NCBI RefSeq assembly: GCF_052425735.1
Contig: NC_135759.1
Span: 42,594,001-42,658,000, forward strand
Direction of reading: 5' to 3'
DNA: 64,000 nucleotides
Source of the DNA: Oculina patagonica
Lineage: Eukaryota
The position numbers were made by a program, and so were the translations under genes. The notes beneath the pieces were generated by a model, which was given only the letters and a program-made list of their open reading frames with translations, ran no database searches and was not told where the DNA came from. Numbering within the stretch: position 1 is the first letter of the stretch; each line of letters starts with the position of its first letter. Below are positions 45,115-64,000 of the stretch, one piece after another.

Positions 45115-45609
45115 TCACCAGAACTTCTTGTGACCGCTCGCTAAGTACATAACGCATCCAACGAAGACTGGCAGGGTAATAATGCTCCTGACCATATGAT
45201 AGCTATTCCACTTGTCTATGGTCTCCCTCACAACACTTTCGCTCTTCTTGCTAGTTATGTCTTCATCGTAGATGGGGTCAATCGAGTTAGGTTTCAGCAC
45301 GAAGAGTGTGTACGGGATAATCGATGCCATCAGACCTCCACCCACAAGGAAAGGCAGACCTTTCTTTGGATTGCAATAGTACGCCCCGGCACCTGAAATT
45401 GCTGACAGCAGCGCCAAGCGACTTTGAAGGACTTTCGCTCGATCAAAGCTCTCCATCCATTCTTTGTGACACGACTTCGTATCGGGCAGTGTCATTCGCG
45501 CCGGATGTTCCACGAGGTTGATGTACACTGCGCCCCCAACAAACATGCCGGCAGCTACAGTGGAAACAACTTCGAGACACGGAAATAAGTCGTCCAAATC
45601 GAACCCCAT
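45115..45609 (-). CDS. DUF1772 / anthrone-oxygenase-like membrane protein, paralog 1
   Basis: Intronless 164 aa; GMFVGGAVYINLVEHPARM, W..SFDRA, PYT, W..YHMVRS; about four hydrophobic helices. Confidence 0.85.
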   Translation of the reverse strand: MGFDLDDLFPCLEVVSTVAAGMFVGGAVYINLVEHPARMTLPDTKSCHKEWMESFDRAKVLQSRLALLSAISGAGAYYCNPKKGLPFLVGGGLMASIIPYTLFVLKPNSIDPIYDEDITSKKSESVVRETIDKWNSYHMVRSIITLPVFVGCVMYLASGHKKFW

Positions 45610-46623
45610 AATGGAAACAATTCCCGTCCAACAAATTCAATACAGTGCGTGCAGATTTTGCAAGGGAACACCCAAAGACTACTGCGCAACGAAGAATCGC
45701 GCATTCATTTTGTTGATTGCTGCTTTGTGAGTGGGCGCCGAGTCTTGAGGAGTCACGCAACGAGCGCGAAAAAATTCGGCGAATTGGTTTATTTAAGGTT
45801 GAAATTTCAAGGAATCGTTTCCAATGTTTCGTAGAAAATTTATAAAAAGGGGGACGCCTGATTCCCATTACAACGAATCCTTTTTGGAAAATTTCGTGAA
45901 GCAGAGGCACAAGCGAAAGACCATTGTTTGGTTTTGTTTATTTTTCGCACCCCTTGGGCTTTGGCGCCCGACAGATTATTGAAAAAAAAAGGAACTTGAA
46001 AGGCTAATCGCAGGTTAGAAAAATGTAGTTCAAGAAACTCAATGCGTGGTTCACTAAATATTTAAGCTTTAAAATGTTTACCACGGGCGCACTTCAAAAC
46101 AACAACAAAAAAGTAACGCAAGAGTCATGTCACGCTCTCCTGAAAAACTTCCCACAAACGTTTCCTTTGTTTCTTTTTCATCCTGCCGAGTCGGTTTCAT
46201 ATACAGCTGTTGGCAAACTACTTCTCACTGAACATGGATTGAAATTAAGCCAAACTAAAAAAATCACAGCTTCTGAAAATCAGTCTTAAATTAAAAAAAA
46301 CTCCACCGCAGTGTGGTGAAAAAACCTTTATTTTTCAGCAATTGTACAGCACTGAATAGTTTTGTACAACCGACGTGCAAATATTAAAGGGATATACAAT
46401 ATACATACGCCTTTTACAAATATAATAACAAAATCAGCATCAATATTTTTCAAGTTACAGCTCGAAGCCTCGGTTTAAAATGAATACAAAGAATATTTCC
46501 CCCGCCGTCAATAATATATATTATGGCGGTATTTCTCGTGCAACCAAACCCAAAGCAAATAGCCTGAAGTACATTTTTAGTCAGTGCCCACCGACATATC
46601 AAAGACCATCAACATGGCGTCCT

Positions 46624-47097
46624 TCATTTGTAGATAATGTTGTAGACACACCAGGCGAATGCAGTCAAATCTATCACGGTACGAACCTTGTGAAATGTGT
46701 TCCAATTGTCCACCGTGTCCCTTACTTCGGCTGGATCCATTTTGCCTGCGACTTCATAATCATAGATCGGATCAATAACACGAGGCTTCATGGCTATAGC
46801 AGTGTAGGGCATATTGAAGGCCATCAGACCAGCTGTAACCAGCCAGGGTTTTCCTTTGCTTTGGTTCATAGCGAACGCTGCTATTCCTCCAGCTAGCGGC
46901 AGCAGTGATGTCCCAGCCATCAGGTACTTGGCGCGATCGAAGCTTTCCCTCCATTGCCGATGAAGAGATTGTACATCATCAAGTTCCATTCTTGCGGGAT
47001 GTTCTACAAGGTTAATGTAGATCGCTCCACCTGCTATTACACCCGTGGCCACTGTGGAAGCGAATTTGATGAACTTGAAAGCATCCTCGGCGTCCAT
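46624..47097 (-). CDS. DUF1772-like protein, paralog 2
   Basis: Intronless 157 aa; GAIYINLVEHPARM, WRESFDRA, WNTFHKVRT. Confidence 0.85.
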   Translation of the reverse strand: MDAEDAFKFIKFASTVATGVIAGGAIYINLVEHPARMELDDVQSLHRQWRESFDRAKYLMAGTSLLPLAGGIAAFAMNQSKGKPWLVTAGLMAFNMPYTAIAMKPRVIDPIYDYEVAGKMDPAEVRDTVDNWNTFHKVRTVIDLTAFAWCVYNIIYK

Positions 47098-47524
47098 GAT
47101 CCAAAAAAAGAAGGCGCAAATTCTACAGATTCAAACGAGTTTACTCTAAGCCTGACCTTCGAACGCTCTTGCGGTGAATATAAAACACGGGTGGATTGAT
47201 TTACATATTGCGCGTTGTTTTTGTTTTATAATTTATGACAAAAGTCCAACATCTGAACATAAATTATACTGAGGGTCGACGGGACGAAAAATTTTTCCTG
47301 TGGTATTAGACTTTTTGCGGGGTAAGAAAAAAACACAGTTCAAAAACTATATTATTTCAATATCTTTATTGAGCCTTTTTCGCTACAATGCACTGATACC
47401 AGTCGCTCAGTTCATGCAAATTACATTTGTCACGTAAATAGACCCTCAATTAGGCAAGATCACAGGCGGTTGACCATAGTTCCCAAGCTAGTGTAACAAG
47501 TTAGGCACTTCATGTTGATATAAC

Positions 47525-47998
47525 TCAATTGTACACAAGGTTGTACACACACCAAGTGAACGCGGCAAGGTCCATTACAGTACGGACCTTGTGAAGCGTG
47601 TTCCATTTATCCACTGTATCTTTGACCACGGCTGGGTCCCTTCTGGCGACAACATCATAGTCACTGATGGGTTGAATAGAACGAGGTAATATTACCAAGG
47701 CAGTAAATGGCACGTTAAAGGCTAGCATGCCCGCTGCAATGAGCCATGGCTTTCCTTTGCTGTGGTTTATAGCATACGCTGCTATTCCTCCACTGATGGG
47801 AATGAGCGACACACCTATCATGAGTTTCTTGGCGATATCGAAGCCTTCTTTCCATTGCCTGTGCAGTGACTTCACATCGTCGATTTTCATGCGCGCGGGA
47901 TGTTCCACAAGGTTGATATAGAGCGCTGAGCCAGCCATTATACCGGTGCCAATTGTTGTGGCGAGTTTGATCAACTTGAAAGCATCTTCTGATTCCAT
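47525..47998 (-). CDS. DUF1772-like protein, paralog 3
   Basis: Intronless 157 aa; close paralog of 46624-47097. Confidence 0.85.
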   Translation of the reverse strand: MESEDAFKLIKLATTIGTGIMAGSALYINLVEHPARMKIDDVKSLHRQWKEGFDIAKKLMIGVSLIPISGGIAAYAINHSKGKPWLIAAGMLAFNVPFTALVILPRSIQPISDYDVVARRDPAVVKDTVDKWNTLHKVRTVMDLAAFTWCVYNLVYN

Positions 47999-48652
47999 TT
48001 TGGTGCTGTATTCGAGTGCAGACTGTAGCCAGTACTGGTGTTACGGAGTGTGTGACACAATGAGTTCCAAGTATTAAATTTGCATACCGCATGCATGGCA
48101 ATTGATGTTTTCTCTGGACGCGCCTTGTCGGTTATTTATTTAATCCTTTGAGCTGCGTTTTCGCGCCTTTTTAATTTACTTCACACCTTCAAATTATAAT
48201 CTGTTCTTGAAGATCCATTACCATCACGTACACCTTATTGCGAAGAGCCAACATAACATGCACAATCTAAAGTTAATGCTCTCTTTTCGGACCATGGATT
48301 TATACACTGAAAGACCTGCATGAAATGATTGCGAAACTTTCACTTTCTTTGTAAGTGTTGCAAGGGTTAACACCGCATTCTACAACAAAACAACCGAGTT
48401 CCATGCATTTTAGACTAATTTTATTGTTATAAAACTTAATCATTTTACATTATTGACAGCTGTCATCGTTTGGTCGGTCCTTGTTGTCGTGTCACGCTAT
48501 TGCACCACGGGTGGTGGGTGTGATTATTTGTTTTGAAAAAACAAGGTCCGCGTCCTTTGCTAAATGCAAAGTAGTTGGAAGTCACTTCTTCGTGGGTTGC
48601 CAATTTTCTGATTAAAAACAGGAACAGCGTTTTAAAATCGAATCGATTCAAT

Positions 48653-49138
48653 ATGGCGAGCTTTGACATGAGCCCAGAGAAAATCTTCCCTCTAATCGAG
48701 TGCATCAACACGTTTCTTTGCGGCCTGATGACAGGAATAGCAGTGTACGTAGTAGCAGTGGAGCAGCCGTCACGAATGACCATGAAGGATCCTGTAGCAA
48801 TCCATCGACAGTGGCTGACTAGTTTCCACCGCTGTGCTCGGCTGATGATGAGCCTGTCACTGTTTCCTCAGATCTCCGGTGTTGTGGTGTACTACATGGA
48901 CCGTACCCGCGGCCTTCCGTGGCTAGTCGTGGCTGGATTGCTCCTGTTTAACATGCCTTATACCTTGCTGGTTTTAAAGCCATACTTCATTGATCCTATC
49001 CTGGATGAAAACACTTGTTCCAAGAAGGATCATAAGTACGTGGTTGACAGGGTGGTGAAGTGGAGCAGAGCTCATTTGGTTCGTGTGTTGATAAATGTTA
49101 TCGCCTTTTCTGTATGCATTCATACCGTTGTATACTAG
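48653..49138 (+). CDS. DUF1772-like protein, paralog 4 (divergently oriented)
   Basis: ATG at 48653 (MASFD...); AVYVVAVEQPSRM, FNMPYT, WSRAHLVR. Confidence 0.8.
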   Translation: MASFDMSPEKIFPLIECINTFLCGLMTGIAVYVVAVEQPSRMTMKDPVAIHRQWLTSFHRCARLMMSLSLFPQISGVVVYYMDRTRGLPWLVVAGLLLFNMPYTLLVLKPYFIDPILDENTCSKKDHKYVVDRVVKWSRAHLVRVLINVIAFSVCIHTVVY

Positions 49139-49987: not shown

Positions 49988-52900
49988 ATGGTACGTGAGA
50001 AGGCATAACATGTGTAATTTTTATAACTTTCTTGCTCTTTTTACACGTTTAAAGAAATTGATATAGTCTCAAGAAGTACTAAGCTGTATATAGGCGAAAA
50101 TTGGTGATAAAATAGCAAAGCTTTCGCTAAGAAATTTACTGTGAAAATTGGTTGAGGGTGAATTTCACAACGTGGATTTTCCTTGAGACTCGTGGTACAA
50201 TCTCTGCTTTTTCGTTAATTCTGTTTTAAAATTCTTGTTAGATGTTGATTTTCAGCGCTATCAACGTTTATCTGTAATAGATAACTACCGTGCAAATGAT
50301 CACAATAATTATTTCGTCCCATATACGAATTTAACATTGAAGGCAATTTGAAGTCTTGAATGGTTGAAACATTTCGAGGGGTTTACGTGTACTTTTTTAT
50401 GAGAAAAATGGTATCACGTTGAAGGCTTATTCATGGTCTGAGTGCCGTTCCAGACGTTTCAGGAGGCAGCGAAAACAGTTTATTGATATGCTTTGTTAAA
50501 ATCTGGTGGAAAGATTACAAGTTATCTTACAACTCTGAAAGTGACAAAATGTAAAACCTAGACAATGGTTAAGAATTGTCTTGTTTATCAGCACAAAGAT
50601 GAGATTTCTTGGTTCCCATTTTTTTAACGGGGCTTTGAAAGTCATTGAGGAGGTTGCTCCATAATTTAGGATCCTTTGATCATGATCTTTTGAATATGTT
50701 TGGGCCTCTTCATATGAGCCCACTTGACCGGGTCACCCCTTTACCAAGATCTTGCCTCATTCCTATTTCCTTCGTAAAAATTTTGATGTGTTCATATGAG
50801 AAGGCTAACCAACCTGGTTACCAAGATCTCGGTTTCTACAACCAAGATCTAGGCAACTGGGATGAAAAATTTTCCACATGAACACTCCAGCCAGGTTATC
50901 GTGGTGAACCTCTTTCTGAGAATACTCTTTCGCAACTGGGCATTCAAAAAGGCATAATTTTGCCTTGTGTGTAATTCCACATTAGAAGTTTTGGAAATTT
51001 GCTTTATCAGTAAAGTTGCTAGTGTCGATACAGCTACCATAGTCATGAACAATGCATTTTTTCCTTTCTAATTTCATTCCGGTTTATCAATCACTTTATT
51101 TACCCCGCTAGAATTAGTCAGTCAATAGAGCAACAATGAAAGGGATAAGCAGTCAGGTTAAACCCTCGCCATTTGTTTACTCGCCTTCTTCATGCTGCTC
51201 CACAACTAACTAAACACCAAGAAAAGGCTAATATTTTGGATATTACCTTGTGAGAACTAGGACTGTCTTATGATAAAATGGGCAGGGGTCAGGCTCTGAG
51301 TTGAAGGAATTACCTTAAGTTTCCTACCTTATTATTTCATGAATTGCCTAAATTGATCATCCAAAAGTAAAATGATTTAAGGAAATGGCAATTTAGTGAG
51401 TCACTCTAACCCTGACGTTAATTTCGAAATGTTCAATAATATAACTGATTGTTTGTTGTTTGTTTCTCAAGGCGGCTAGACCTTTAATAACAGTGTACAA
51501 TGAGACAGGAGAAACTGCAGGACAAACCACCCTGCCTGCCGTGTTCAAAGCTCCCATTCGGCCTGATGTGGTTGGCTTTGTCCACACCAACATGGCAAAG
51601 AACAAACGGCAGCCTTATGCTGTAAATAAGATGGCTGGTCATCAGACCTCTGCTGAGTCCTGGGGTACTGGCCGTGCTGTTGCTAGGATTCCTCGTGTGA
51701 GGGGTGGTGGTACTCATCGCTCAGGTCAAGGTGCTTTTGGCAATGTATCCTTCCCAGAGTTACACATATAATAACAACATGTAGTTTAGGCAGAATCTCA
51801 CAAGTTGGGAAAGTGGTTTAACTTGTTTACTTACTTAACTCATTGTGTGTCTGCACATCCATGTAAGGCCATCAAGTAGTTTAAAGTGATTCAGATTGAT
51901 GTTTGTACAGGGATGCTTAACAACTATAAGTATAGGTACTCCATGTGATACATGTACATTATTTGTACTGTAGGTTTCAAATTATCAAGAGGGACTTTTC
52001 AGACATTTTATGGAAAATAGAGCTTGAAAGATCAAATGGAAAGAAACAATTATCCTTTACCAATAACTAAGATGTGCCGAGGTGGTCGTATGTTTGCACC
52101 CACAAAAACCTGGCGCCGCTGGCATCGTAAGATCAACCAGAAACAGCGCCGTTATGCCATGTGTTCAGCCCTGGCTGCCTCTGCTCTCCCCGCCCTAGTG
52201 ATGGCCAGAGGGCATCGTGTTGATGAGATCCCTGAGGTGCCATTGGTTGTTTCAGATGGTATTGAATCCCTGCAGAAGACAAGTGCTGCAGTCAAGCTGC
52301 TGAAGGCTGTTAATGCTTATGGGGATGTAGAAAAGTGCAAGGAATCCAAAAAGATCCGTGCAGGCAAAGTAAGATGACATATCTGTCTAAGAAATAGAGA
52401 AAAATTCCTTTGTCTCTTAGTCAGAGTTGTTTCTAACTTGAGTGAATGTTTAAGAGAAAGAGATCAACTGCACATTTGTTTTATGTTTTACCAAACAAGT
52501 TACAAACCATGGACCAAAACAAGGAAAGAAAGCTTTCTACTTTTTTTGACAAAATTAGTCCAAAAAATTTTATTTTTTTGTAGTGTAGTAGTAACAGGCT
52601 TAAATCAGATCAAATCACAACAATCAGTATTTTATTTATGTCATAAGTTTTTTCGTCTTGTTCTTATCACACCAAGAATGAAAACCCTAATAACAGATTG
52701 TGAATTGAAAATATGTTTTTCCTTCTTCTCTTGCTTCATTCTTTGTATCTGACATTGGATTCAAATTTCAAATTAGGGTAAGCTCCGCAACCGCAGGACT
52801 GTCATGCGCAAAGGACCACTCGTAATCTACAATGAAGATCATGGATTGAAGAAAGCCTTCCGCAACTTACCAGGGGTGGATATCTTGTCAGTGGATCGGT

Positions 52901-55478
52901 TGAATCTCCTGAAGCTTTGCCCAGGTGGTCACATGGGCAGGTGAGGAGGATGGCTCAATATCTTTGTCTAAAGTGCATGTATGAACTGATGCTCTGTTGT
53001 TCCACAAACACAAGACAGTCTGAAAGTCAGCAGTTTTTTGGTGTGAAAGGGATATGGGAAATAAAGTTGTTTAGAAAAGGGTCATAGCTTTTTTTTTCCT
53101 GCAGTTGTTTCACATCACTGAAATTAGTTTGTATTGTTCACTGTCATTGCAAAGACCATTAATATGGATGACACAAGTTATTAGAATAGGGCACAAACAA
53201 CTGAAAAAAGGACAGAAAAAGATAGATTGAAAGTTAAAAAATTCTGCAAAATACCAGGCAAAATTTATTTTTTGCTGACACATGGACACAACAGGACTGG
53301 CTGAAGTTGTGCATGTTGCGAAAATAAAGCCTGAAAAAATCAGGCTTGCCGGGACTCGAACCCTTACCTCCACGATACCAGTGCAGCGCTCTAACCAATT
53401 AAGCTAACAAGCCAACTGAGAGCTGGTCATTAAATTGTTTCGAAATGTACCCGGGGAAGATGAAGATGAAAATTATGAATAATTATATGAAATCATATAT
53501 TTGAACTGCGGATGAAAAATAAATGAAGAGAAGATCCTCGCAGCTATGAACACAACTTAAGCAGTTGCAAAAATAAAGCCTGAAAAAATCAGGCTTGTCG
53601 GGACTCGAACCCTGACCTCTGCGATACCGATGCAGCGCTCTAACCAATTGAGCTAACAAGCCAACTGAGAGCTGGTCATTAAATTGGTTCGTAATGTACC
53701 TGGGGGAGATGAATATGAAAATTATGAATAATATGAAATCATATTTTTTAACTGCGGATGAAGAAAAATACCATAATAAGCATCGTCAGCATTTTGTTTG
53801 CAATTATGATGTTGCGCAACTTTAGGTTTATTTGAGAACACATTTAATATTAATGTGAGCCAGTGCAGTGCTCTAACCAATAGAGCTTTATTTTCGCAAC
53901 TGCTTAAGTTGTGTTCATAACTGCGAGGATTTTCTCTTCATTTATTTAGACAATATTAATGTTATTATTGCGAGGAGATTTGCATAACAAAACCAATCAG
54001 AATCAATCTGAAAAAAAAATTGTAGCTAACCATACTAGTAGCTCATACTTTTTATTGGTTGTCGAAAGGGTTGTTTCTTCAAAGACTAACAGCAGTTTAT
54101 TGCTGACTTGTTCCCTGTTACTTGTAGGTTCTGTATCTGGAGTAAGGGAGCCATTGAGAAACTTGATGCATTGTATGGAACTGGAAAGAAACCATCTTCG
54201 GAAAAGAAAGATTTCAAGTAAGTTGGCATATGTAGGCTCTAATTGTACATATGTGGGTCTGATGTGGTTACATTAGGCTGATGTAATATGTTCCTTGGTA
54301 AGGCACTAAATGTTCACTTGTCTCTTGTTACAAATAACAAATTGACCACTTTTTTCCATGGTCTACACTCTTATAGACGGCTTGACAATTTTACTTTATC
54401 ATTTTCAGGGGGAGGTAGGATTAAGATTTTTTTTTGGGGGGGGGGACAGGAAATAAGTTTTGGATGAAGAAGGGGAGAAGTGGGGGGTCATTATATATTA
54501 CAATGACTAGCCACCAAACACCCCCCTCCAACAATTCTGTTTCATGTCAACCGGGGGCACAGAGTCATTTACATGGGTCCATATGTTCAGTTTCCTTGAC
54601 ACAGAAAGTTATTTACTGTGATTAAATTTTATATTACTGATGTTAGGAATTGATGGCAAAGAGGGCCATGCATTTATCAGTATTTTAAACTACTGCCAAT
54701 TGTCACTCTTGATAATTAAAACCTATTATTTATTAATTATTTATAGTCGTATTAATGAATTTACAGTGAAATCCTTATTTCTTGCACCTCCCAGTAAATC
54801 AAAACAAAAGTAGTTTCCCTTCCCTCAGTCAAACAGTGCAATTGTGTCCTGATTTCTCTAACGCACTTTAGTTTCTGTTGGAGTTTTGAGAAATTGGGAT
54901 TTCACTGTACAATAGAACCTTCCCTTTGGAGCACCATCCTGTAAATGTGATGATTATTGGGTCACCGTAAAATTCCGCTTATAAGCCTTGGGCTTATACA
55001 ACTTAGTAAGGGGTTTTGGATGGGCTTATAAATGTGAGGGCTTATAACCAGGGGGGCTTATAAGCGGAATAAAAAAAAAAAAATTCGAAATGAGCCACAG
55101 CTGCGTTAATCCAAATCAGTTTTTCATAAACTGGTTTGGAATTAAGCTTTAAAAACTCATAATATATCAAATTCATTTCCATATCTGGGGGGACCTTACA
55201 ATCGGATGTATTTTTCTGTTTATTGGTAGATAAGTCTATAACCAGGGGGCTTATAAGCTGACTTTTACGGTATTAGGTTCTACTGTTGTGTGTTGTTGTG
55301 ACCGTGGTTGCAGCATTTCAGTGCTGGCAGTAGCTGATTGTTTCCCAATGATAATACAAGGAAGTAACACTAGTTATGTTTTTTTTTTTTGCAGTCTTCC
55401 ACGACCGATTATGAGCAATGCAGACCTCAATCGCCTGATCAACAGTGAGGAGATACAGTCTGTTATCAGACCTGCTGG
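49988..55478 (+). CDS. RPL4: 60S ribosomal protein L4 (uL4), 3'-incomplete in the window
   Basis: Exons 49988-49990 (ATG), 51472-51744, 52072-52368, 52777-52940, 54128-54217, 55395-55478. Motifs [64 protein letters not shown]. No C-terminal exon found before the Polinton. Confidence 0.97.
51745..52071 (+). other. U12-type (minor spliceosome) GT-AG intron in RPL4
   Basis: 5' site GTATCCTT; branch-like TATCCTTTAC at 52051-52060 about 10 nt before the AG; no polypyrimidine tract. Confidence 0.85.
53318..53765 (-). repeat. Tandem ~250-bp repeat containing a tRNA-like module (53342-53413 and 53591-53662)
   Basis: Minus strand GGCTTGTTAGCTCAATTGGTTAGAGCGCTGCATCGGTATCGCAGAGGTCAGGGTTCGAGTCCCGACAAGCC has A and B boxes and an acceptor stem, with imperfect anticodon and T stems. 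Confidence 0.7.
54965..55270. mobile_element. CCGTAAAA-TIR MITE in RPL4 intron
   Basis: Same family as 38196-38524. Confidence 0.75.
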
Positions 55479-56039
55479 GTAAGCAACAAACAAAGTTCTT
55501 GCTGAGCTTTATTTTGTCACTTTTTTCCTTCATAGTAACTGACCATTTCCATGCAACAGCTAATCATCATCATCATCATCATCATCCTCCTTGCAGCACC
55601 TCCTGGTGGTGTAAAGGCCACGACAGTTAATAGTATATATACTGTACACCCAGTGGTGGATCCCGGGGCTCAGGACTCCCTTACACTTGCTTAACATTAC
55701 AATCCTTGCATCGAGGACAAAAATAAGGAGGGGATTTATACTTTTGGATCTCACAAGTTTATCTTTGATAGTCCTTCTCCTTTTATATGATATTATGTGA
55801 GGTTCTTTGAATATTTTTTGAGAAATGGTGGTTCTATCAAATGTCAGTTTTTCATGAGTACCTGTATATGTTTTAAGTCTGGTACTGCCGGGTGGTATTG
55901 CATTACATTTACAAAATGCAAGATTGGACCCCCCCCCCCCAATAAAAAATTCCTGGGTCCACCCCTGACACTTACTGGACTAGTCTGAGCCGAATATGAA
56001 AAGATATTTGACCCAAGACTTGAATGGTCCAGCCCAATA

Positions 56040-56220: not shown

Positions 56221-56984
56221 TATTGAAGTCGCGACTTAAATATCTTTCCTTATTATTCAACACATGCGCGCGCTGCCCATATATGGTCAAAATGTTAACG
56301 ATATCTGTCATCCGTACATAGCAGATATCCTGCCATATACGTAGGTTGCGAAGATTCGTCCGAAATCTTGTAAAGCGTTGCATAATTACAGTTTTTCTTT
56401 CTGCAAAATGTGTTTCGTTGGCAATTTGTTGAATAATAAAACAATTATCCTGCTCAATCTTGCGGAAAATCGTCTGATTTTAGCCAACTCGGCCTACGGC
56501 CTCGTCGGCTAAGTATCAGGCGATATTCCGCGCGATTTCGCAAGTAGTAAGGGACGCTTACATAACTCACTAGCCAATCAGAGAGCAGTATTTCTAGCGC
56601 TCTAGAGTCCATAGCAAATCAATAGGAGGGAGATAGACCACGTGACAAGGGTTACACCACGTGACCGGTCACATGACTTTGGCAAATTCACGTGACCTCC
56701 GAAAAGATGACGTCATCATTAGGTTAGGGTGGGGCTAAGTCGCAAGAAGCCCAAACGAGCCGGAGTCCCCTATAGCCACAGGACACGGCGCCCCTTGTGG
56801 TATACAAGCAACAAACACGCATGCGCAGTTCTAAAATCACTTATTTATTGACAAATACCGATCTACAACTACATGCGCCGACCCTACTGGCCGCGCGTCC
56901 CTGGGAACGATCGATATTCGATACTCGATATTCGATACTCGATATTCGCGATACACTCGCACTTCATAGTGAGATAGCAAGAGG

Positions 56985-57460
56985 ACAAGATATATTGTTC
57001 ACAAACGGCCAGGCTATCCTTGTGGTATCTGAAACTCAATACTCTGCACTAAACGCATGCGCAGATTAGTCTACGCAATTCACTCACAGAGTTAGCAAGA
57101 CGACTATCCTTTATATATGGTTCACAAACGGCCAGGCTATCCTTGTGGTATCTGAAACTCAATACTTTGCACTAAACGCATGCGCAGATTAGTCTATGTG
57201 ATTCACTCACAGAGTTAGCAAGACGACTATCCTTTATATATGGTTCACAAAGTGCCATACTGTCCTTGTGGTATTTGGAACTCAATACTTTGCACTAAAC
57301 GCATGTGCAGATGAGTCTACGCGATACACTCACGATTGATAATTAGTTACCTCTCTTGTGAAGACCACAAAGGTTGTCTCAGAAAGCGCCATGCCTTCCT
57401 TATGGTATGGTTCTTCCTGGCACTAAACGCATGCGCAGATGAGTCTGCATTGCTTTTTCT
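56985..57460. repeat. ~122-bp tandem repeats in the Polinton terminal region
   Basis: GTTCACAAACGGCCAGGCTATCCTTGTGGTATCTGAAACTCAATACT..GCACTAAACGCATGCGCAGA.. at ~56997, 57120 and 57243, plus a partial copy. Confidence 0.85.
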
Positions 57461-57669
57461 AGGTCGGCGATTCTGAGAAAACGCACGCTTGTGAAGTATT
57501 AAAAAAAAAAAAAGAAACACGTCAGAGAGGGGGGATGAGGGGGTATCCTCCTTTCCCGGGTGTACTGGGAACGAGTAAGAGAGTTTTGTTTGTTTACTCG
57601 AGTCGGTGATCAAATGCACATACGACACCATGTAAACGTTTAACCACGTCTTTATTGTGTTCAACAACA

Positions 57670-58029
57670 TTAAAGTTTCAACTTTTTCTTGGCTTGCATG
57701 ATTCGTTTGACAATGCGTTCCGTCATGGTTTTACTTCCAGGTAATTTGTTGATGGCTTTAATCATTTTCTCGTCGGCTTTCCACTTGTCCCTTAGATTCT
57801 TGGCGTGACTGTAATCGATGTCGTGCTGTTTGGCGATCTTGTCTAATCGATTGATGCCCGGGTCCCCGCGTTTCAATCGCTTGGCCAATTTGGTTCCGGG
57901 ACCCATGTACTGATAACCGGGCCAGTGAAATTCGATTCCAGTCTTGCCGAGCCACTTCTGAATGTCGATCCCACGTCCGCGTTGTCGTCGCCGTGTCGTC
58001 TTTTTAGTCTTCTTCTTGGTCTTCGTCAT
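57670..58029 (-). CDS. Parvovirus-VP1-type phospholipase A2 with basic N-terminus (PLA2X-like)
   Basis: PGYQYMGPG calcium-binding loop; DKIAKQHDIDY catalytic HD motif; N-terminal KKKTKKTTRRRQRGRG. Confidence 0.9.
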   Translation of the reverse strand: MTKTKKKTKKTTRRRQRGRGIDIQKWLGKTGIEFHWPGYQYMGPGTKLAKRLKRGDPGINRLDKIAKQHDIDYSHAKNLRDKWKADEKMIKAINKLPGSKTMTERIVKRIMQAKKKLKL

Positions 58030-58603
58030 ACTCCAATTTTCGTCTCAACTTTTTGCCTTTGGCCCAATCTTCCCAACCAGGTAATGGTTTCAGTTTCTCG
58101 GCTTCCGTTTTCCGCACAGCTGGCTTTTTCCTCGTCTTTAGTTTCTCTTCTAAACTCTTGAATCTCTCTGCCAATGTCGGTTTGCCCGCAGGTGCCGTCT
58201 TTGCTTTCTTTGTCGCCTTCGGGGTGACTGTGGGAGGTGATTTCTTGGCACTTCCTTTTATGAGTTGTTTCAACATGGTCTCCACGGGTCCCGTCACCAA
58301 ACCCACATTCTCCAACTCCTCCTCCTCCTCCTCCTCCGCTTCTTCGCCCGGCCGTCTGGCTGTTACTCCTCCCATGGGAAATTGACGTATCCGTTTGGTC
58401 AAACGAGCCCGTTCGCGAGCGAGAGGTTTCACTCGTGCCACGGCGATACCGTCGGGAACGGATTTATCTTTTAACAGCAAGTGACTTTCGGCTGCTATGC
58501 GAGCCGCTTTGTTCAACAATGCATTGTCCGTGATTTCGCCTTTGTAATATTGCACCAAACGATTCAAGTCTTTAGCGGGAACCATCACGACTTCCTCGGT
58601 CAT
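58004..58603 (-). CDS. Polinton hypothetical protein (199 aa; acidic tract, Lys-rich tail)
   Basis: Open ORF overlapping its neighbours in the compact gene block. Confidence 0.75.
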   Translation of the reverse strand: MTEEVVMVPAKDLNRLVQYYKGEITDNALLNKAARIAAESHLLLKDKSVPDGIAVARVKPLARERARLTKRIRQFPMGGVTARRPGEEAEEEEEEELENVGLVTGPVETMLKQLIKGSAKKSPPTVTPKATKKAKTAPAGKPTLAERFKSLEEKLKTRKKPAVRKTEAEKLKPLPGWEDWAKGKKLRRKLEYDEDQEED

Positions 58604-58907
58604 CTTTGAAGTATTCTTCCAACAAGCTTTCGTAACACCCTTGCCAGTAACGAACTTCCTCTTCTAACTTGGCTATGCGCCTTTTCAAGTCGCTTCTCGA
58701 TGTACACTTGTCGCTACACTCCTGGCACAGTACTAGGGTCTTTCCTTCCGGAGTCTCTTGCCTCTCTCGAATGCAATCTTCGCACTCTGCGTCGTATTTT
58801 AAAGCCAAATAGTCATGATTGACGCGGGCGTAGGCTTCGTGCCAATGGTCTGCTCTTTTTTCCCACTCTGCTTCTCTGTCCGCCGATTCGCGTAACATTT
58901 TCATCAT
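58572..58907 (-). CDS. Polinton hypothetical coiled-coil protein with CxxC...CxxC
   Basis: ATG at 58907 overlaps the upstream stop (ATGA); CEDC and CQEC pairs flanked by coiled-coil-like segments. Confidence 0.7.
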   Translation of the reverse strand: MMKMLRESADREAEWEKRADHWHEAYARVNHDYLALKYDAECEDCIRERQETPEGKTLVLCQECSDKCTSRSDLKRRIAKLEEEVRYWQGCYESLLEEYFKDDRGSRDGSR

Positions 58908-59239
58908 TGTCTGGAGGGTGTTTTGCAGAGACATGCTTGGTAGATCTGTTGCAGTCCTTTCCAAAACCCGCTACCCTTCTGTGACAGGAGACCTTCTCGC
59001 CTTCTCTTCAACGAGTTTCTGCGCTTACCCAGTTCGCGCAAGACTTTCTTATATCGTCGCAGCTTGGCGGTGATCGGTGGACTGAGCGGAATGCGGTTCT
59101 TGAGCAAATTCAATACCATCTCACTCACGGCGTTGATCTGATCGGCGTTGGCGTGCTGTAACATCTCTTCTCGCTTGAACCGATTGGCTTCTCTCAGAAT
59201 GCTCTCCAAGAACGGACGCTGTCGACGTAATCGATTCAT
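58904..59239 (-). CDS. Polinton small basic protein (adintovirus gasderminX-like pattern)
   Basis: AVSEMVLNLLKNRIPL...KLRRYKKVLRELG...LLSQKGSGF pattern; ATG at 59239 in an ATGA overlap. Family name recalled from memory, not searched. Confidence 0.7.
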   Translation of the reverse strand: MNRLRRQRPFLESILREANRFKREEMLQHANADQINAVSEMVLNLLKNRIPLSPPITAKLRRYKKVLRELGKRRNSLKRRREGLLSQKGSGFWKGLQQIYQACLCKTPSRQ

Positions 59240-59439
59240 ACTTCCCACGGGGCTGGACGTCGGTTGTAACTACCGGTGACGCCCTTTGCCCCCATCCTCT
59301 TATAGCGTTTGTCCTTTCCCAATTTATAACCCAACTTGCCGGCAAACTTGAGTATATCCAATAAACCCTCTCCTCTCCACATGGGTCCTCTTTTAGGTTG
59401 TTTTCGTCTTCTCCTTACTATCTTTCTTCTTCGCACCAT
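59236..59439 (-). CDS. Small Arg-rich putative virion core protein
   Basis: MVRRRKIVRRRRK...WRGEGLLDILKF; abuts neighbouring ORFs. Confidence 0.7.
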   Translation of the reverse strand: MVRRRKIVRRRRKQPKRGPMWRGEGLLDILKFAGKLGYKLGKDKRYKRMGAKGVTGSYNRRPAPWEV

Positions 59440-59507
59440 CTTGTCACAGAATGCCGTCTGTTGTAACTACCGGTGACGCCCAATGCCCCCATCCTCTTAT
59501 AGTGTTT

Positions 59508-59714
59508 TTATCTCTTTTTCTTTCGAGTGGCTGCATCCAAGGCTTTCTTTGCACCCCAACCTGCAGCACCCGATGCAGCACCCAAAGCGATTGCTTTTCC
59601 ACCCGCGATCAAAGCTGGTATCAAGGCTGCTAAGGGTAAAATACCACCCTTCTGTCCTATTCTTCTCCTGCCAGCACGTCTCCGCCTTTGCGTCACACGT
59701 TTCTTTCTCCTCAT
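59508..59714 (-). CDS. Adenovirus protein X (pre-mu)-like core protein
   Basis: Arg-rich N-terminus then QKGGILPLAALIPALIAGG, resembling adenovirus pX RRMRGGILPLLIPLIAAAIG. Confidence 0.75.
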   Translation of the reverse strand: MRRKKRVTQRRRRAGRRRIGQKGGILPLAALIPALIAGGKAIALGAASGAAGWGAKKALDAATRKKKR

Positions 59715-59718
59715 GGTC

Positions 59719-59940
59719 CTATCGTCGTCGCGGTCTACGTCTATAATGATTTACATTATCCATTATCCCTTTAAATCCTTGACTGGCCAATTTACCACCC
59801 AACGTGAAGAATGTGGGTGAAGGACCCGAGAGAAACATGCTGGCCCCCTCGGCTATCTTGTCCACCAAACGATGTTTACGTCTCGCGAGAGCTCCACCTC
59901 GCTGCCTCCTTCTTCTGGCCTTACGTTTCGTTCTTCCCAT
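59719..59940 (-). CDS. Small Arg-rich putative virion core protein
   Basis: MGRTKRKARRRRQRGGAL...YRRRPRRR. Confidence 0.7.
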   Translation of the reverse strand: MGRTKRKARRRRQRGGALARRKHRLVDKIAEGASMFLSGPSPTFFTLGGKLASQGFKGIMDNVNHYRRRPRRR

Positions 59941-59958
59941 CCTACCATAACTGTCACT

Positions 59959-60459
59959 TCAGACGGGGGTATCTTCGCTTTTATCACAACAAAATAGTCG
60001 TTCATACTCTTGAATGTACTTGTCGGCCAAAGGTGGTGCAAAATCGATGATCGTGTCATCTAGAGTTTGCATCTTGATCAAGAATCCTTCTAGTTCGTCC
60101 ATCGGAAGACCGCGCGCGTACGTTCTCAATTCGATCAACGTCTTGTCGTAGGTGGTGTAGGCAAAACGACATACGTCCACTTTGAACGAATATTTCTTGA
60201 AATCGTTCCAGCCCTTGACGACAGTCCCAGCTGAAGTTAGACATGCCACAATAACAGTATTTTCTGTAAGGGAACCCGCAATGATACCCGCTGCCACGAT
60301 GAATAAAGCCAAAGCGTTCAATGAAGCATGACACCACTTAAAATGGTAAAACATTTGACGATGACACCACCACTTTTTGTGGTAAAAGGTATACAATCCG
60401 TCCAATCTGTGTAACAGGTCTGGATCCAAGTTCGTCTTCGACCCGTTTAGTAGGGACAT
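59959..60459 (-). CDS. Two-TM protein, SLATT-like
   Basis: Basic/aromatic helix, two adjacent hydrophobic helices, then KKYSFKVDVCRFAYTTYDKTLIEL helix; this architecture resembles SLATT domains. Confidence 0.65.
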   Translation of the reverse strand: MSLLNGSKTNLDPDLLHRLDGLYTFYHKKWWCHRQMFYHFKWCHASLNALALFIVAAGIIAGSLTENTVIVACLTSAGTVVKGWNDFKKYSFKVDVCRFAYTTYDKTLIELRTYARGLPMDELEGFLIKMQTLDDTIIDFAPPLADKYIQEYERLFCCDKSEDTPV

Positions 60460-60926: not shown

Positions 60927-61076
60927 TTATATTCTCTCACGAATCTGGCGTTTTTCGGCCAAATGTAACACAGTTTGCATGGCGTCGTAGTCCATGTCCT
61001 CTTCTCTCATACGCTCGAAATGACGACCGCACAGGTCCAAGAACGCGTGCCACACGTGATCGTTACGTACGAACAT
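60927..61076 (-). CDS. Possible small ORF (49 aa) filling the ATPase-to-60872 gap
   Basis: MFVRNDHVWHAFLDLCGRHFERMREEDMDYDAMQTVLHLAEKRQIRERI*; start overlaps the ATPase end; below the ORF-track length cutoff. Confidence 0.35.
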   Translation of the reverse strand: MFVRNDHVWHAFLDLCGRHFERMREEDMDYDAMQTVLHLAEKRQIRERI

Positions 61077-61728
61077 CTCGAACGAATCTGTAACATCTCA
61101 TGCATCCCTCGTCTTTTAAGAGGTGGCTAAAAATCCGTCTGTCGTCGCCACTGGCAGGGTGTAGATCCAATACCATGTAACCAAAGGGTCTTTCCGTCGT
61201 CTTGGTGTAGACGTCCATCACATCTTGCCATCGGGAGGGAAACGCTTGTAACAGTAAATTCCTCATGCCCAATTGATCGCGAGGGTTCTTGAAAGCCACG
61301 ATGTAATGCGCATTTCGAGAAATGCTCTTGGCGTATTTTCCCGGCGGAAACATGTCTTGACACAAGTACAGGACGGTGATGTTCCTGTGGTGGGAAAGTT
61401 TGGTGAACAGATCCAATACTCTCTTGTCGTTTCCTCCTTCTTCCATCAGATCGTCCAATACCATCACCCCTCCACGGGGAAACCATTTGGTCAAATCTAC
61501 TTCTTCGGGAATCCCTTCGTGAAATTTCACGCCTCGCTTTTTCATGTTCGCAAAACCGTCTTGCCAAGCCCCAAAACAATAATGAATGGTCTCAGGGGGT
61601 GTACTAAACAACTCTTTTGAGTGATTCAAAAGTACCGACTCGGTAAAACAAGTCTTTCCGCAGCTAGAGGGGCCCACGATCAAAATGCTAGAGGGCATCC
61701 GAAAGCTAAAGGCTTCACCGCGCTCCAT
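61063..61728 (-). CDS. A32/FtsK-like genome packaging ATPase
   Basis: Walker A GPSSCGKT; Walker B MVLDD; LSHHRNITVLYLCQ and SRNAHYIVAFKNPRD motifs. Likely ATG 61728; the frame stays open to 61818. Confidence 0.92.
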   Translation of the reverse strand: MERGEAFSFRMPSSILIVGPSSCGKTCFTESVLLNHSKELFSTPPETIHYCFGAWQDGFANMKKRGVKFHEGIPEEVDLTKWFPRGGVMVLDDLMEEGGNDKRVLDLFTKLSHHRNITVLYLCQDMFPPGKYAKSISRNAHYIVAFKNPRDQLGMRNLLLQAFPSRWQDVMDVYTKTTERPFGYMVLDLHPASGDDRRIFSHLLKDEGCMRCYRFVRDVRT

Positions 61729-61853: not shown

Positions 61854-62423
61854 TCACAACAACAAGTGTCTTACACCGCAGAGAGACGGTTCACAATCCT
61901 GATGGTATTCCATCTTACATATTTTGTGCCACGACCTTTCCTTCAAGATCAATGTCTTCAACATTTGCCCAACTTTATGATCATTGTACACGTAATCGTG
62001 TTTCTTGAATCTCGCTTCGAACTGACTCATGCTACGTCCTTCGGCCCTATCGATGAGATACATCAGCGCGTAATCGCCGCAGCTCTGACTGTACAACGAT
62101 TGTAGACTCTGTCCGTTGCGCTCCACGTACTTCCAATGAGCGTCCAACCAATCTTGCAACGGTTGCGCCGTCTGGTACACCTCCAGGGGTAAGGCGTAAC
62201 TGTCCAACACTTCGCACACGTTTCCATTCGTCCACAGCGCGATCCAATGCCGACCGCGCATGTAGTGAGGATCGGTGTTGACGATGTACCCGCGGGCTTC
62301 CGTCTTGAATGGTTTTCGAGGTAATCGATTGCAGGCCACTGTCCCGTAAAAGTAAGGTTTCAACCAAGGGTGATGTCTGGCCAACTGATCCAACTGCACG
62401 TTATTCAAAGTCACTTTTTCCAT
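61854..62423 (-). CDS. Adenain-like (clan CE) maturation cysteine protease
   Basis: IVNTD..GRHWIA (His), VLDSY (Asp), LQSLYSQSCG (Gln, Cys). Confidence 0.92.
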   Translation of the reverse strand: MEKVTLNNVQLDQLARHHPWLKPYFYGTVACNRLPRKPFKTEARGYIVNTDPHYMRGRHWIALWTNGNVCEVLDSYALPLEVYQTAQPLQDWLDAHWKYVERNGQSLQSLYSQSCGDYALMYLIDRAEGRSMSQFEARFKKHDYVYNDHKVGQMLKTLILKERSWHKICKMEYHQDCEPSLCGVRHLLL

Positions 62424-62425
62424 CA

Positions 62426-63829
62426 CTAACGCTGGTACACGTCGTACAACACGGCTTTGTTCTTGTCTATCTCCAAGAGATTCTCAAACTCTCCGTACAC
62501 GATGATGGTCAAGTTCACAGCTGGGTTGGCTCCAAAGTTCAGCTCTATTAGTAGATTTCCGGCTTGCTTGGGGTTCATCCTGTAACTGTCCACGCATCCG
62601 TTGGCCACGTTGTCGAACACGAACAACGTGCAATTCTTTCCTTGTCCCCAATCGTCACCTCTCACCATGTTTCCTTGCTGCTTGCACAGGCAACCGGTGG
62701 CTTGCAAGAAACGGTGGTACCCTCTGAGATCTTTGGTGCCATCGTTGTGGACCAACTCTAGCGTCTCGTAAGGATACTCTTCTCCTCCCACGAGTTGTTT
62801 TATGCTGCTCATTCCAAACTTCTGAAAACAGAAGGGATCGTTGACCACGTTCCCGGTGAAGGCTGTGGACAGCACCATACCCACGATCACGCGGTTGGGA
62901 ATTCTTCCTTGGAACAAGTTGGTGCATTCGTACCGTCGTTGATCTCCCTGCATGTTGAAGGTCCGAATCTCGCTTCTCACGGTCGGGTAACTCACCACTT
63001 GACTCTTGGTGGTCATCTCATCCATCAGTCTCCTGTACGTCGTGGGATTGAGACGCACTTGACACAGGTACATTCGAACTTTGACTTCCTCGGCCGTCAG
63101 CTTTCCTGCCAGATCCACTCCGTTCAAGAACACGTCGGGAGAATTGAAGTACATCTGTATTCCTATCTGCACTCTGGGTACCAACAACTTGCTCAGATGA
63201 AACACTTCGATGAGGGGTTTGAAACGCAACACGTGTCGCTTGCCTTCCGTGTAATTGGCTTGTTCTGCTTTAGAGTTCTTGAGAGCCTCCTTGTGATTGG
63301 CGGTCAGGGCTACATAGTCTGCGTGTCCAGCTCCAGCGTTGGCTGCAGTGTTCGTGTTATTGTCCGTCCACGTGGCTGGGAAATCGATATGATTGTACCA
63401 GCCTTGAGGTTTCAAGATGGTTTCTCCATCACGTCTGTCGTAATTCAGCAACGTTTCCAAGAAGGCTCTGTAATGGTACGTGTCCGTCTGGGGACTGATG
63501 AGAGTACCGTTGAGACGCACGCTGATTTGCTTGAACAGAGAATGGGCTAGATTGTTGACGGGCCACAGCTTGTCGGCAGCTGCCACGTTCTCATCGTTGT
63601 CTTTCTTCAGTTGCAATTCTACCTCGAAAAAGCTACGGCTGAGATCGATGTAATCTTCTTGGGGGTCGATCTGAAACTCCACCGGATTGATGCCTGTGGT
63701 GTAGGTCTGAACGGGGACCATCCGATACGACGAGACGCTGACGTCTGTCGGTGGTACGGCGAATAGATCCAATCGAGGATTGGCCTCGCGTCTCGACTGC
63801 GGGTAGGCGCTCGAGATGGTTTCGGTCAT
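62426..63829 (-). CDS. Double-jelly-roll major capsid protein (Polinton PY / adintovirus hexon)
   Basis: LDLFAVPPT, PVEFQI...YIDLSRS, PVNNLAHSLFKQI, YHYRAFLETLLNY, LFQGRIPNRVIVGMV, IVYGEFENLLEID. ATG at 63829 overlaps the upstream stop. Confidence 0.92.
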   Translation of the reverse strand: MTETISSAYPQSRREANPRLDLFAVPPTDVSVSSYRMVPVQTYTTGINPVEFQIDPQEDYIDLSRSFFEVELQLKKDNDENVAAADKLWPVNNLAHSLFKQISVRLNGTLISPQTDTYHYRAFLETLLNYDRRDGETILKPQGWYNHIDFPATWTDNNTNTAANAGAGHADYVALTANHKEALKNSKAEQANYTEGKRHVLRFKPLIEVFHLSKLLVPRVQIGIQMYFNSPDVFLNGVDLAGKLTAEEVKVRMYLCQVRLNPTTYRRLMDEMTTKSQVVSYPTVRSEIRTFNMQGDQRRYECTNLFQGRIPNRVIVGMVLSTAFTGNVVNDPFCFQKFGMSSIKQLVGGEEYPYETLELVHNDGTKDLRGYHRFLQATGCLCKQQGNMVRGDDWGQGKNCTLFVFDNVANGCVDSYRMNPKQAGNLLIELNFGANPAVNLTIIVYGEFENLLEIDKNKAVLYDVYQR

Positions 63830-64000
63830 CGTCTTCTCTTCCTTCTTCCACTGCGCTTCCGTAAGGTCTGTATCCAATCGTAGCCAGGAGGCTTTCTGAC
63901 CTCGGGACCTATCCACCCGCCCTTTTGTACTTTTCGTCGTCGCCTCTTTTGTCCCAACAAGGCCTGGTTCAAAAGTGCCAGTGAGAATCCTTCTCCCCGC
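63826..64000 (-). CDS. C-terminus of another Arg-rich Polinton protein (cut by window edge)
   Basis: ...RGEGFSLALLNQALLGQKRRRRKVQKGGWIGPEVRKPPGYDWIQTLRKRSGRRKRRR*; its TGA overlaps the MCP ATG. Confidence 0.65.
   Translation of the reverse strand, partial: RGEGFSLALLNQALLGQKRRRRKVQKGGWIGPEVRKPPGYDWIQTLRKRSGRRKRRR

Follow-up and report, generated by a model that had tools for sequence, protein, structure and literature searches.

Gln-Gly tags as probable self-protease sites in small basic proteins of a coral Polinton

Polintons occur across many animal genomes and are regarded as close relatives of adenoviruses. In the latter, small basic precursors, namely pX (pre-mu), pVII and pVI, carry GG-X and GX-G sites for the viral protease adenain (AVP, PF00770), which cuts (M/I/L)XGG-X and (M/I/L)XGX-G but also accepts Gln or Asn at P4 (PMC4246237). 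Adintoviruses, the virus group to which the present element belongs, are known to encode PLA2X, GasderminX and cupiennin-like proteins, and PLA2, pX-like and membrane-active small proteins were proposed as adintovirus virion core components (Starrett et al. 2021, PMC8502044); the string "cleav" is absent from the main text of that paper and from the part of its supplement considered here. The adomavirus protein LO6, a pX/pVI-like core protein encoded beside an adenain homologue, appears to be cleaved, with smaller bands in virions and predicted adenain motifs (Welch et al., 10.1101/341131). Likewise, entomopoxvirus-associated polinton-like viruses code for a pX homologue (Mu core-like), a PLA2 and an adenovirus-type protease, with neither a cleavage motif nor a multi-gene set described in the portion of the report considered (PMC11296320). 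In the literature examined, the Polinton protease is described by homology only. While the pX-like adintovirus domains are thus already published, we found neither a report of a Gln code or a modular slot nor any mention of Gln-Gly motifs for Polinton proteins; such a motif may still be annotated in subscription journals, in bioRxiv supplements or in the remainder of the PMC8502044 supplement.

The window (64,000 nucleotides of the Oculina patagonica genome) ends within a 20.6-kb Polinton (adintovirus; G000:C2:42650543-42671189), of which the coral genome holds at least 32 near-identical copies. Its affiliation is marked by a pPolB (PF03175, E 8.5e-31), an rve integrase (PF00665, E 3.8e-13) and a chromodomain (PF00385, E 9.3e-6), while its capsid genes, which have zero Pfam matches, are named by size and position. 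Contigs of four runs, only presumed to be RNA, span the stretch without joints, which speaks neither for nor against expression. The general features of the element in the window are:

56537..56542, no strand: left copy of the 6-bp target site duplication; the identical 6 bases follow the right end (L010:3190-3195)
56543..57483, no strand: left terminal inverted repeat, a 948-base match (95%) to L010:2245-3190, with ends AGTAGT/ACTACT
59959..60459, minus: 166-aa SLATT-like membrane protein, untagged, at the edge of the variable slot (PF18181, E 3e-4, under the cut-off)
61063..61728, minus: probable packaging ATPase, with weak Pox_A32 (E 0.09) and P-loop matches and conserved synteny
61854..62423, minus: adenain-like cysteine protease, the likely cutting enzyme (His59, Asp74, Gln108, Cys115)
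62426..63829, minus: 467-aa probable major capsid protein, by size and position, without a Pfam match and without the Gln tag

Seven small basic ORFs of this element, which are genes under purifying selection, form the set of interest. The original prediction had listed six motif-bearing ORFs under 57670-59940; all six are present on the minus strand, but this interval holds only five, and the sixth starts 62 bases past the window. The first site of the latter, noted as RGEG, reads QRGEG in an ORF of 78 aa, and a seventh (85-aa) ORF is also tagged. The ORFs of the set, with those interleaved among them, are:

57670..58029, minus: 119-aa parvovirus-type phospholipase A2 with a basic leader; tag QRGRG at 57970-57984 (PF08398, E 6e-12, residues 33-114)
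58004..58603, minus: 199-aa conserved ORF, interleaved, outside the tag set (Gln tag in 0/12 related ORFs)
58572..58934, minus: 120-aa ORF with a coiled coil and a Cys pair, interleaved, untagged (tag in 0/12 related ORFs)
58904..59239, minus: 111-aa basic helical protein with 697 homologues; tag QKGSG at 58967-58981
59236..59439, minus: 67-aa basic protein; variant tag WRGEG at 59365-59379, then an amphipathic helix
59455..59507, no strand: 53-base remnant, a 92% direct repeat of 59258-59310 in the 3' part of the 67-aa gene
59508..59714, minus: 68-aa protein with a weak likeness to protein X (mu); an Arg tract leads to the tag QKGG (59643-59654), which is followed by a hydrophobic segment and then a basic tail
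59719..59940, minus: basic protein of 73 aa, tagged QRGG at 59893-59904; also kept in L016 and in loci from metagenomes
63826..64000, minus: 3' part of a 78-aa basic protein starting at 64062; tags QRGEG (63988-64002) and QKGG (63916-63927)
L023:2560-2817, beyond the window and just upstream of the 78-aa ORF: 85-aa ORF with MRGG and QEGNG

The motif initially proposed for these proteins, x-[RK]-G-(G|xG), exceeds chance only weakly in the 11 ORFs of at most 200 aa that this arm of the element holds (8 sites vs 4.4 expected; 577 of 10,000 shuffles reach it), whereas Q-x-G-(G|xG) stands out in the same ORFs with 7 sites vs 0.71 expected, a count reached by 0 of 10,000 shuffles. Across the seven ORFs, the Gln tag, Q-x-G-G or Q-x-G-x-G, occurs at 7 sites vs 0.48 expected and is found in 6/7 of them, as against 1 vs 1.1 expected in the 11 other proteins of the element. 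The canonical adenain consensus, [MLI]xG(G|xG), is not enriched in the seven ORFs (2 vs 1.9 expected), and the fit to it that had been assumed is not supported; with Gln allowed at P4, the tags fit the relaxed adenain rule in both its GG-X and GX-G forms.

The tag is kept at the protein level across related elements, as the original prediction required, and the ORFs are conserved Polinton genes. Using the protease to find loci, we recovered 68, which are kin of one another, wherein 61/120 small basic coding-strand ORFs (47 clusters; 6/10 multi-member clusters mostly tagged) bear the tag vs 4.7 expected. By comparison, 0/71 protease, 0/72 capsid and 0/15 integrase ORFs of the relatives have it; minor-capsid ORFs also match the pattern in 9/46 cases (2.1 expected). 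IMG/VR scans with the Polinton protease as query returned zero relatives. Both Gln codons and all four Gly codons are in use at 82 tag sites, and we therefore reject a DNA or splice signal as the source of the motif. In the 111-aa family, the tag is present in 105 of the best 120 of 697 homologues with strong conservation of its fixed positions (Q 0.95, G 0.96, G 0.91) as opposed to P3 (0.35; 8 different residues) and P1 (0.51; 9 different residues). At the level of sequence, Q, G and G fixed with P3 and P1 free is adenain's dual pattern. A divergent clade (L063, L065, L067, P0212) retains the 111-aa gene without the tag. Among homologues of the 68-aa protein, QxGG is found in 107 of the best 120 of 564; here tag and hydrophobic body are conserved to the same degree and, hence, conservation alone does not single the tag out.

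The tag is restricted to small basic proteins and sits at module borders, and an adenain-type enzyme is encoded beside the capsid gene, an adjacency that adenoviruses share for a protease of the same fold. As originally suggested, this enzyme is adenain-like. Its catalytic residues are intact: His59, Asp74 and the oxyanion residue Gln108 are invariant in 25 sequences and Cys115 is present in at least 90%. Its profile matches ASFV pS273R (3.7e-4) and adenain (8e-4), and a structure model with a pLDDT of 86 from 25 sequences (43 from 3 sequences) retrieves adenain (1.4e-7) and adintovirus adenain (1.1e-13) as top Foldseek matches. The modeled protein is accordingly an adenain (clan CE) fold protease.

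We consider it probable, from these sequence patterns, that the Gln tags are sites for the element's own protease in precursors of virion core and entry proteins. The adenain-like enzyme would recognize the Q-x-G-G and Q-x-G-x-G tags of the seven small basic proteins and cut after the second glycine (QxGG) or before the last one (QxGxG) inside assembling particles. The precursors might enter the particle via their DNA-binding Arg/Lys tracts, as adenovirus pVII and pX do; cutting would then free basic peptides that remain on the genome and unmask entry bodies, i.e., the phospholipase A2, amphipathic helices and the pX-like hydrophobic segment. The Polinton protease would favor Gln at P4, which adenain no more than tolerates; Gln is the rule in the Polinton tags and the exception in adenovirus.

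Of the alternatives, the one that survives best, though we regard it as improbable, is a role in binding, whereby the tag would hold the small proteins inside the capsid or draw them in for packaging and would be uncut or only incidentally cut. The N-terminal segments of adenovirus pVI and pVII do bind the hexon cavity (PMC7998265, PMC4246237), a strict Gln would suit a side-chain pocket and repeated tags would suit multivalent binding; however, an alternation of GG and GxG in which P3 and P1 are unconstrained is what adenain is known for, and the tags occur at module borders whether these are N-terminal, internal or C-terminal. We give little credence to the tag as a flexible Gly linker or an ancestry trace of basic leaders without a specific partner: recombination does shuffle basic low-complexity leaders and could spread one motif, and the tag is lost in some lineages, but its Gln is retained at 0.94-0.95 over saturated synonymous distances, on unrelated bodies and also where there is no leader. 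Even less credible is mimicry of the SUMO/ubiquitin C-terminus, with the tag cut by, or acting as a decoy for, host deSUMOylases or deubiquitinases. QxGG does resemble the SUMO C-terminus and the protease clan includes the SENP and NEDP1 enzymes; yet enzymes of the SENP type require both Gly-Gly and a folded modifier domain, while the modules have no such domain and P1 is not Gly at 96/104 sites of the 111-aa family. Finally, cutting by the predicted active vOTU domain of the Polinton pPolB (PMC11161782) is hardly credible, given that both the site pattern and the place of the gene suit the adenain homologue and that QRGG, although at the polymerase N-terminus of this element and L018, is absent from L081, the third N-terminus found. 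With only 2/3 N-termini bearing it, the polymerase QRGG is also rejected as a cut site.

Under the preferred reading, cleavage by the element's own protease, the tag set amounts to a specific list of substrates whose cut bonds are predicted exactly, together with an expected preference for Gln. If true, adenovirus-like maturation, with core condensation, protease trimming and membrane entry, would extend to coral Polintons. The original prediction had envisioned an expanded set of leader peptides; the post-tag bodies are mutually unrelated, all 28 profile pairs scoring at most 4.05% probability, and paralogous expansion is therefore rejected. A basic leader followed by cargo describes some of the ORFs, but neither the 111-aa protein, whose tag lies near the C-terminus, nor the 85-aa ORF, which has no basic leader; most of the predicted bodies, moreover, are themselves basic (+7 to +15), against a uniform design of this kind. 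Modules are exchanged between close relatives, and some lineages join them as polyproteins with the tag kept at the junction, as in L088 (same junction in L049 and L034), L057 and L081, and L043. In some loci the 73-aa module is joined to that of the 67-aa or the 68-aa protein, and multi-tag proteins reach five tags (P0339) and 10 tags (P0263). In L080 and P0235, the 111-aa protein is extended by a fusion at its N-terminus whose junction has no tag, and P0274, with 11 matched stretches, is spurious and tagless. African swine fever virus, whose pS273R is homologous to the Polinton protease, has core polyproteins punctuated by Gly-Gly that resemble the fused forms; these are very large with strict Gly-Gly sites, whereas the Polinton modules are mostly separate genes of 60-120 codons. 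Adenovirus likewise differs from the Polinton, which has at least seven unrelated modules that swap and fuse, including a PLA2, and no Pfam pVI match, and in adomavirus a single protein, LO6, carries (MIL)XGXG or L(LR)GG motifs, in place of a set of Gln-tagged modules.

Being short and portable, the tag allows unrelated modules to be exchanged, separated or joined. A further-reaching proposal, which we put forward tentatively and hold to be rather unlikely, is that the basic tract and the Gln-Gly tag might constitute a portable address by which fused peptides are packaged and then released by the protease, so that lineages could trade unrelated entry or host-manipulation peptides through one genomic slot, as genes or polyproteins. 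It would also make the Cys-bearing tail of the 111-aa protein a protease-activating cofactor, the Polinton counterpart of pVIc. This tail follows a tag 21 residues from the C-terminus and is a short, Gly-started amphipathic segment, mostly of 14-17 aa in the family, with Gly1', a hydrophobic 2' and a conserved Cys13' (98/101), as compared to Gly1' and Cys10' in pVIc (PMC4246237). For 95 members of the 111-aa family, pVI (PF02993) is absent among the matches listed (25 families).

The likeness of the 68-aa protein to protein X, earlier termed close, was overstated: the window protein has zero Pfam matches, and 18/121 family members match Adeno_PX (PF05829) at E<=10 (best 3.4e-4), with P0357 covering positions 1-40 of 42 of the profile at 19.2 bits (cut-off 25). 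Searches of the coral genome with the Pfam Adeno_PX and pVI models gave no match, and PDB sequence searches with the 68-, 85- and 111-aa families gave nothing significant. The resemblance is weak but consistent. Like pX, the protein runs from a basic tract through GG into a hydrophobic segment (PMC7998265 section 2.5), but it lacks the hydrophobic N-terminal part and first site of pX; the two-site layout of the latter (hydrophobic N-part, basic mu, C-part) is reduced to one tag in the window protein, with two or more in some relatives. An Atlas score of 0.87 against protein X is a lead only. In the adintoviruses of Starrett et al., PLA2 or GasderminX carries the pX-like domain as a fusion (PMC8502044), whereas this domain is a separate gene in the coral Polinton, and the 119-aa PLA2 has no C-terminal pX-like domain of the PLA2X kind. 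This PLA2 scores 46.1 bits against PF08398 (cut-off 23.9), has both catalytic motifs (YxGxG loop, HD) at residues 41 and 69, and shows pN<pS in 15/15 pairs; the tag is found in 5/13 related PLA2 ORFs, several of which are fragments or decayed.

That the motif usually precedes a hydrophobic or amphipathic segment is true at about 4-5 of 9 sites, with a hydrophobic segment in the 68-aa protein, amphipathic ones in the 67-aa and 111-aa proteins and moderate ones in the 85-aa ORF and the PLA2, but not at the rest, both tags of the 78-aa ORF being among those without one. In relatives, the 78-aa and 85-aa ORFs both persist in the interval from the minor to the major capsid gene. In line with the expectation that gene callers would usually miss such ORFs, they are mishandled: the exact sequences of 6/7 are missing from the protein collection, and NCBI gene models join the 68-aa ORF to upstream ORFs with varying splicing. 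We read the resulting 211-353 aa fusions as gene-model chimeras because the joins differ between near-identical copies. The tag points to conserved small genes that annotation overlooks or mis-splices. The helix of the 67-aa protein has a hydrophobic moment of 0.56 (shuffle p 0.002), and the tag site of its relatives reads QRGG, QQGG, QYGG, HYGG, TIGAG or FVGG; the window protein itself has Trp at P4. The adjacent 53-base remnant is likely a recombination scar and is absent from the sister element L019, which has a different module at that place.

The window ends in a Polinton of the coral's own genome (G000:C2:42650543-42671189, about 20.6 kb), whose left arm fills the final 7.5 kb. Its inverted repeats are 950 bases long, the target duplication around it measures 6 bases, and it codes for a protein-primed polymerase as well as an rve integrase that has a chromodomain. 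An 801-base probe places copies of 97–100% identity at 32 sites in the genome, a count that is a lower bound, in addition to diverged lineages. The ORFs considered here are:

57670-58029, minus strand, 119-aa PLA2 protein
58904-59239, minus strand, 111-aa protein
59236-59439, minus strand, 67-aa protein
59508-59714, minus strand, 68-aa pX-like protein
59719-59940, minus strand, 73-aa protein
61854-62423, adenain-like protease
ending at 63826 and running past the window, 78-aa protein
just beyond the window, 85-aa protein

Judging from their sequence conservation, the seven small ORFs are genes. This genome's diverged elements hold counterparts of all of them, as do, at 44–71% identity, 68 metagenome loci that were retrieved by the protease sequence alone. 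Comparisons with relatives gave pN < pS in 97 of 97 pairs, split over the ORFs as 15, 29, 9, 16, 8, 6 and 14; median pN was 0.14–0.38, and pS was near saturation. The 68-, 73- and 111-aa frames are open and carry the tag discussed below in the 11 distinct copies looked at, while a stop interrupts the 67-aa frame in one of the 11. NCBI gene models named for Oculina patagonica are 97–100% matches to the 68-aa ORF, which makes the host a stony coral. The PLA2 domain of the 119-aa protein is clear in Pfam.

The motif of the original prediction, x-[RK]-G-(G|xG), hardly exceeds chance in proteins so rich in Arg, with 8 sites against 4.4 expected in 11 ORFs selected independently of the motif. The real signal in these ORFs is Q-x-G-(G|xG), with Gln at P4 and variable residues at P3 and, in the longer form, P1: 7 sites against 0.71 expected, a number reached in none of 10,000 shuffles, as compared to 1 against 1.1 in the 11 other proteins. 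For the canonical adenain consensus, the seven ORFs show no enrichment (2 sites, 1.9 expected). Among relatives, the Gln tag occurs in 61 of 120 small basic coding-strand ORFs (4.7 expected), which are non-independent kin; they group into 47 clusters, 10 of them with several members, and of those 10 six are mostly tagged. It is absent from the 9 small basic ORFs on the opposite strand and from related protease (0/71), capsid (0/72) and integrase (0/15) ORFs; 9 of 46 minor-capsid ORFs show the pattern. At 82 tag sites every synonymous codon for Gln (two) and for Gly (four) is in use, which places the constraint at the protein level.

The 68-aa family has 564 homologues; among the best 120, 107 read QxGG and one reads MRGG. 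The 111-aa protein has 697 homologues, and 104 of its best 120 have QxGxG, with eight different residues at P3, nine at P1 and column conservation of 0.95, 0.35, 0.96, 0.51 and 0.91. Some facts speak against the protease-site reading given below: the 67-aa ORF has a variant with Trp at P4, the tag is found in 5 of 13 PLA2-related ORFs (fragments counted), and one divergent clade lacks it in the 111-aa gene while keeping it in its other modules. We regard the tag as real and as conserved at the protein level among the small basic proteins that coral Polintons encode.

Passages of PMC4246237 describe adenain as cleaving (M/I/L)XGG-X and (M/I/L)XGX-G, and report P4 Gln or Asn for sites in HAdV-C5 and in HAdV-E4 pTP. 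Both forms, GG-X and GX-G, are present among the Polinton tags. The Polinton protease retains His59, Asp74, Gln108 and Cys115, its profile matches ASFV pS273R and adenain, and its confident structure model best matches adenain and the Terrapene adintovirus adenain. We accordingly predict that the tag is probably the site of this protease. Many relatives keep its Cys-containing final eight residues (within 61854-61900), which are unmodelled in the structure and possibly form a built-in cofactor strand. A QRGG lies near residue 35 of the Polinton polymerase (L009:8209 onward), likewise in lineage L018, and is absent in the related locus L081; in adenovirus, pTP is among the substrates of adenain.

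The bodies behind the tag are mutually unrelated (28 profile pairs, at most 4.05%), and by sequence the tag marks module borders. The 166-aa and 111-aa genes flank a slot whose gene set differs from lineage to lineage: L019, the sister of the window element (ATPase 96% identical), has a different tagged 93-aa module where the window element has its 73-aa and 68-aa genes. At 59455-59507, 53 bases left over from the 67-aa gene likely mark recombination. Modules are also fused with the tag at the junction, namely 73+67 in L088 (the same junction in L049 and L034, 90–93% DNA identity), 68+73 in L043, and, in both L057 and L081, a protein of three parts; no junction tag is seen in two fusions onto the N-terminus of the 111-aa protein. 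The number of tags is between 3 and 10 in more distant pX-like proteins (ten in P0263, five in P0339), and at least one is present in 101 of 142 newly listed cluster representatives. Prenylation is signaled by a CaaX end; two tagged modules (L019:4734-5015, L044:7150-7404) have the CaaX-like C-termini CCIM and CSIM, from which some modules may be prenylated.

The proposed architecture of a basic leader releasing a hydrophobic or amphipathic cargo survives in part. A basic N-terminal piece (+6 to +13) is found in 5 of 7 proteins, but the bodies are basic too, and a hydrophobic or amphipathic segment follows the motif at about 4–5 of 9 sites. The claimed likeness of the 68-aa protein to protein X is weak yet consistent: the window protein has no Pfam match, while 18 of 121 relatives match Adeno_PX, and its layout resembles the basic middle plus C-terminal part of adenovirus pX (PMC7998265). 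In the 111-aa protein the tag is near the C-terminus, and a cut there is predicted to free a short C-terminal peptide that starts with Gly1′ and a hydrophobic 2′; Cys13′ is present in 98 of 101. The adenain cofactor pVIc has, in the relevant passages of PMC4246237, Gly1′ and Cys10′. The peptide thus recalls pVIc by analogy, though it could be a mere amphipathic helix. Residues 6–29 of the same protein match the INTS6 C-terminal family (PF15300, E 6e-4), as do 63 of 95 homologues (best 4.2e-5, under cut-off), and it weakly matches the INTS6 chain 7bv7_C; this may be chance, or it may imitate a contact of the host Integrator.

Systems of this kind are known from adenoviruses and have been anticipated in part for adintoviruses, in which Starrett et al. 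(PMC8502044) describe fusions of pX-like domains with PLA2 and with GasderminX, along with cupiennin-like genes; "cleav" is absent from its main text and the supplement part examined. Sections of Welch et al. (10.1101/341131) report smaller LO6 forms in adomavirus virions and adenain motifs, and parts of Barth et al. (PMC11296320) a mu-like protein in polinton-like viruses. No substrate motif was found in passages of PMC11131425, PMC8097293, PMC11161782, PMC11071296, PMC12220804, 10.1101/2023.08.22.554363, 10.64898/2026.10.13.758929 and 10.1101/2025.02.07.637071, and our literature search found no Gln-Gly motif for Polintons, though supplements may hold one. The Gln-centred code, the number of predicted substrates, and their swapping and fusion appear to be new.

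At least three more Polinton lineages exist in the genome (L015-L019, L021, L022); in L018 the gene order differs, with the 67-aa module adjoining the polymerase. A 302-aa element ORF (L009:3989-4897) has a GRF zinc finger (PF06839, E 2e-7), and 59959-60459 codes for a SLATT-like two-helix membrane protein kept in these elements (PF18181, E 3e-4). On the host side, exons of a ribosomal protein L4 gene (PF00573) lie at 52036-55482, with about 1 kb between them and the left end of the element, and four adjacent intronless ORFs with the anthrone oxygenase domain (PF08592, E 4e-13 to 2e-9) at 45115-49138.
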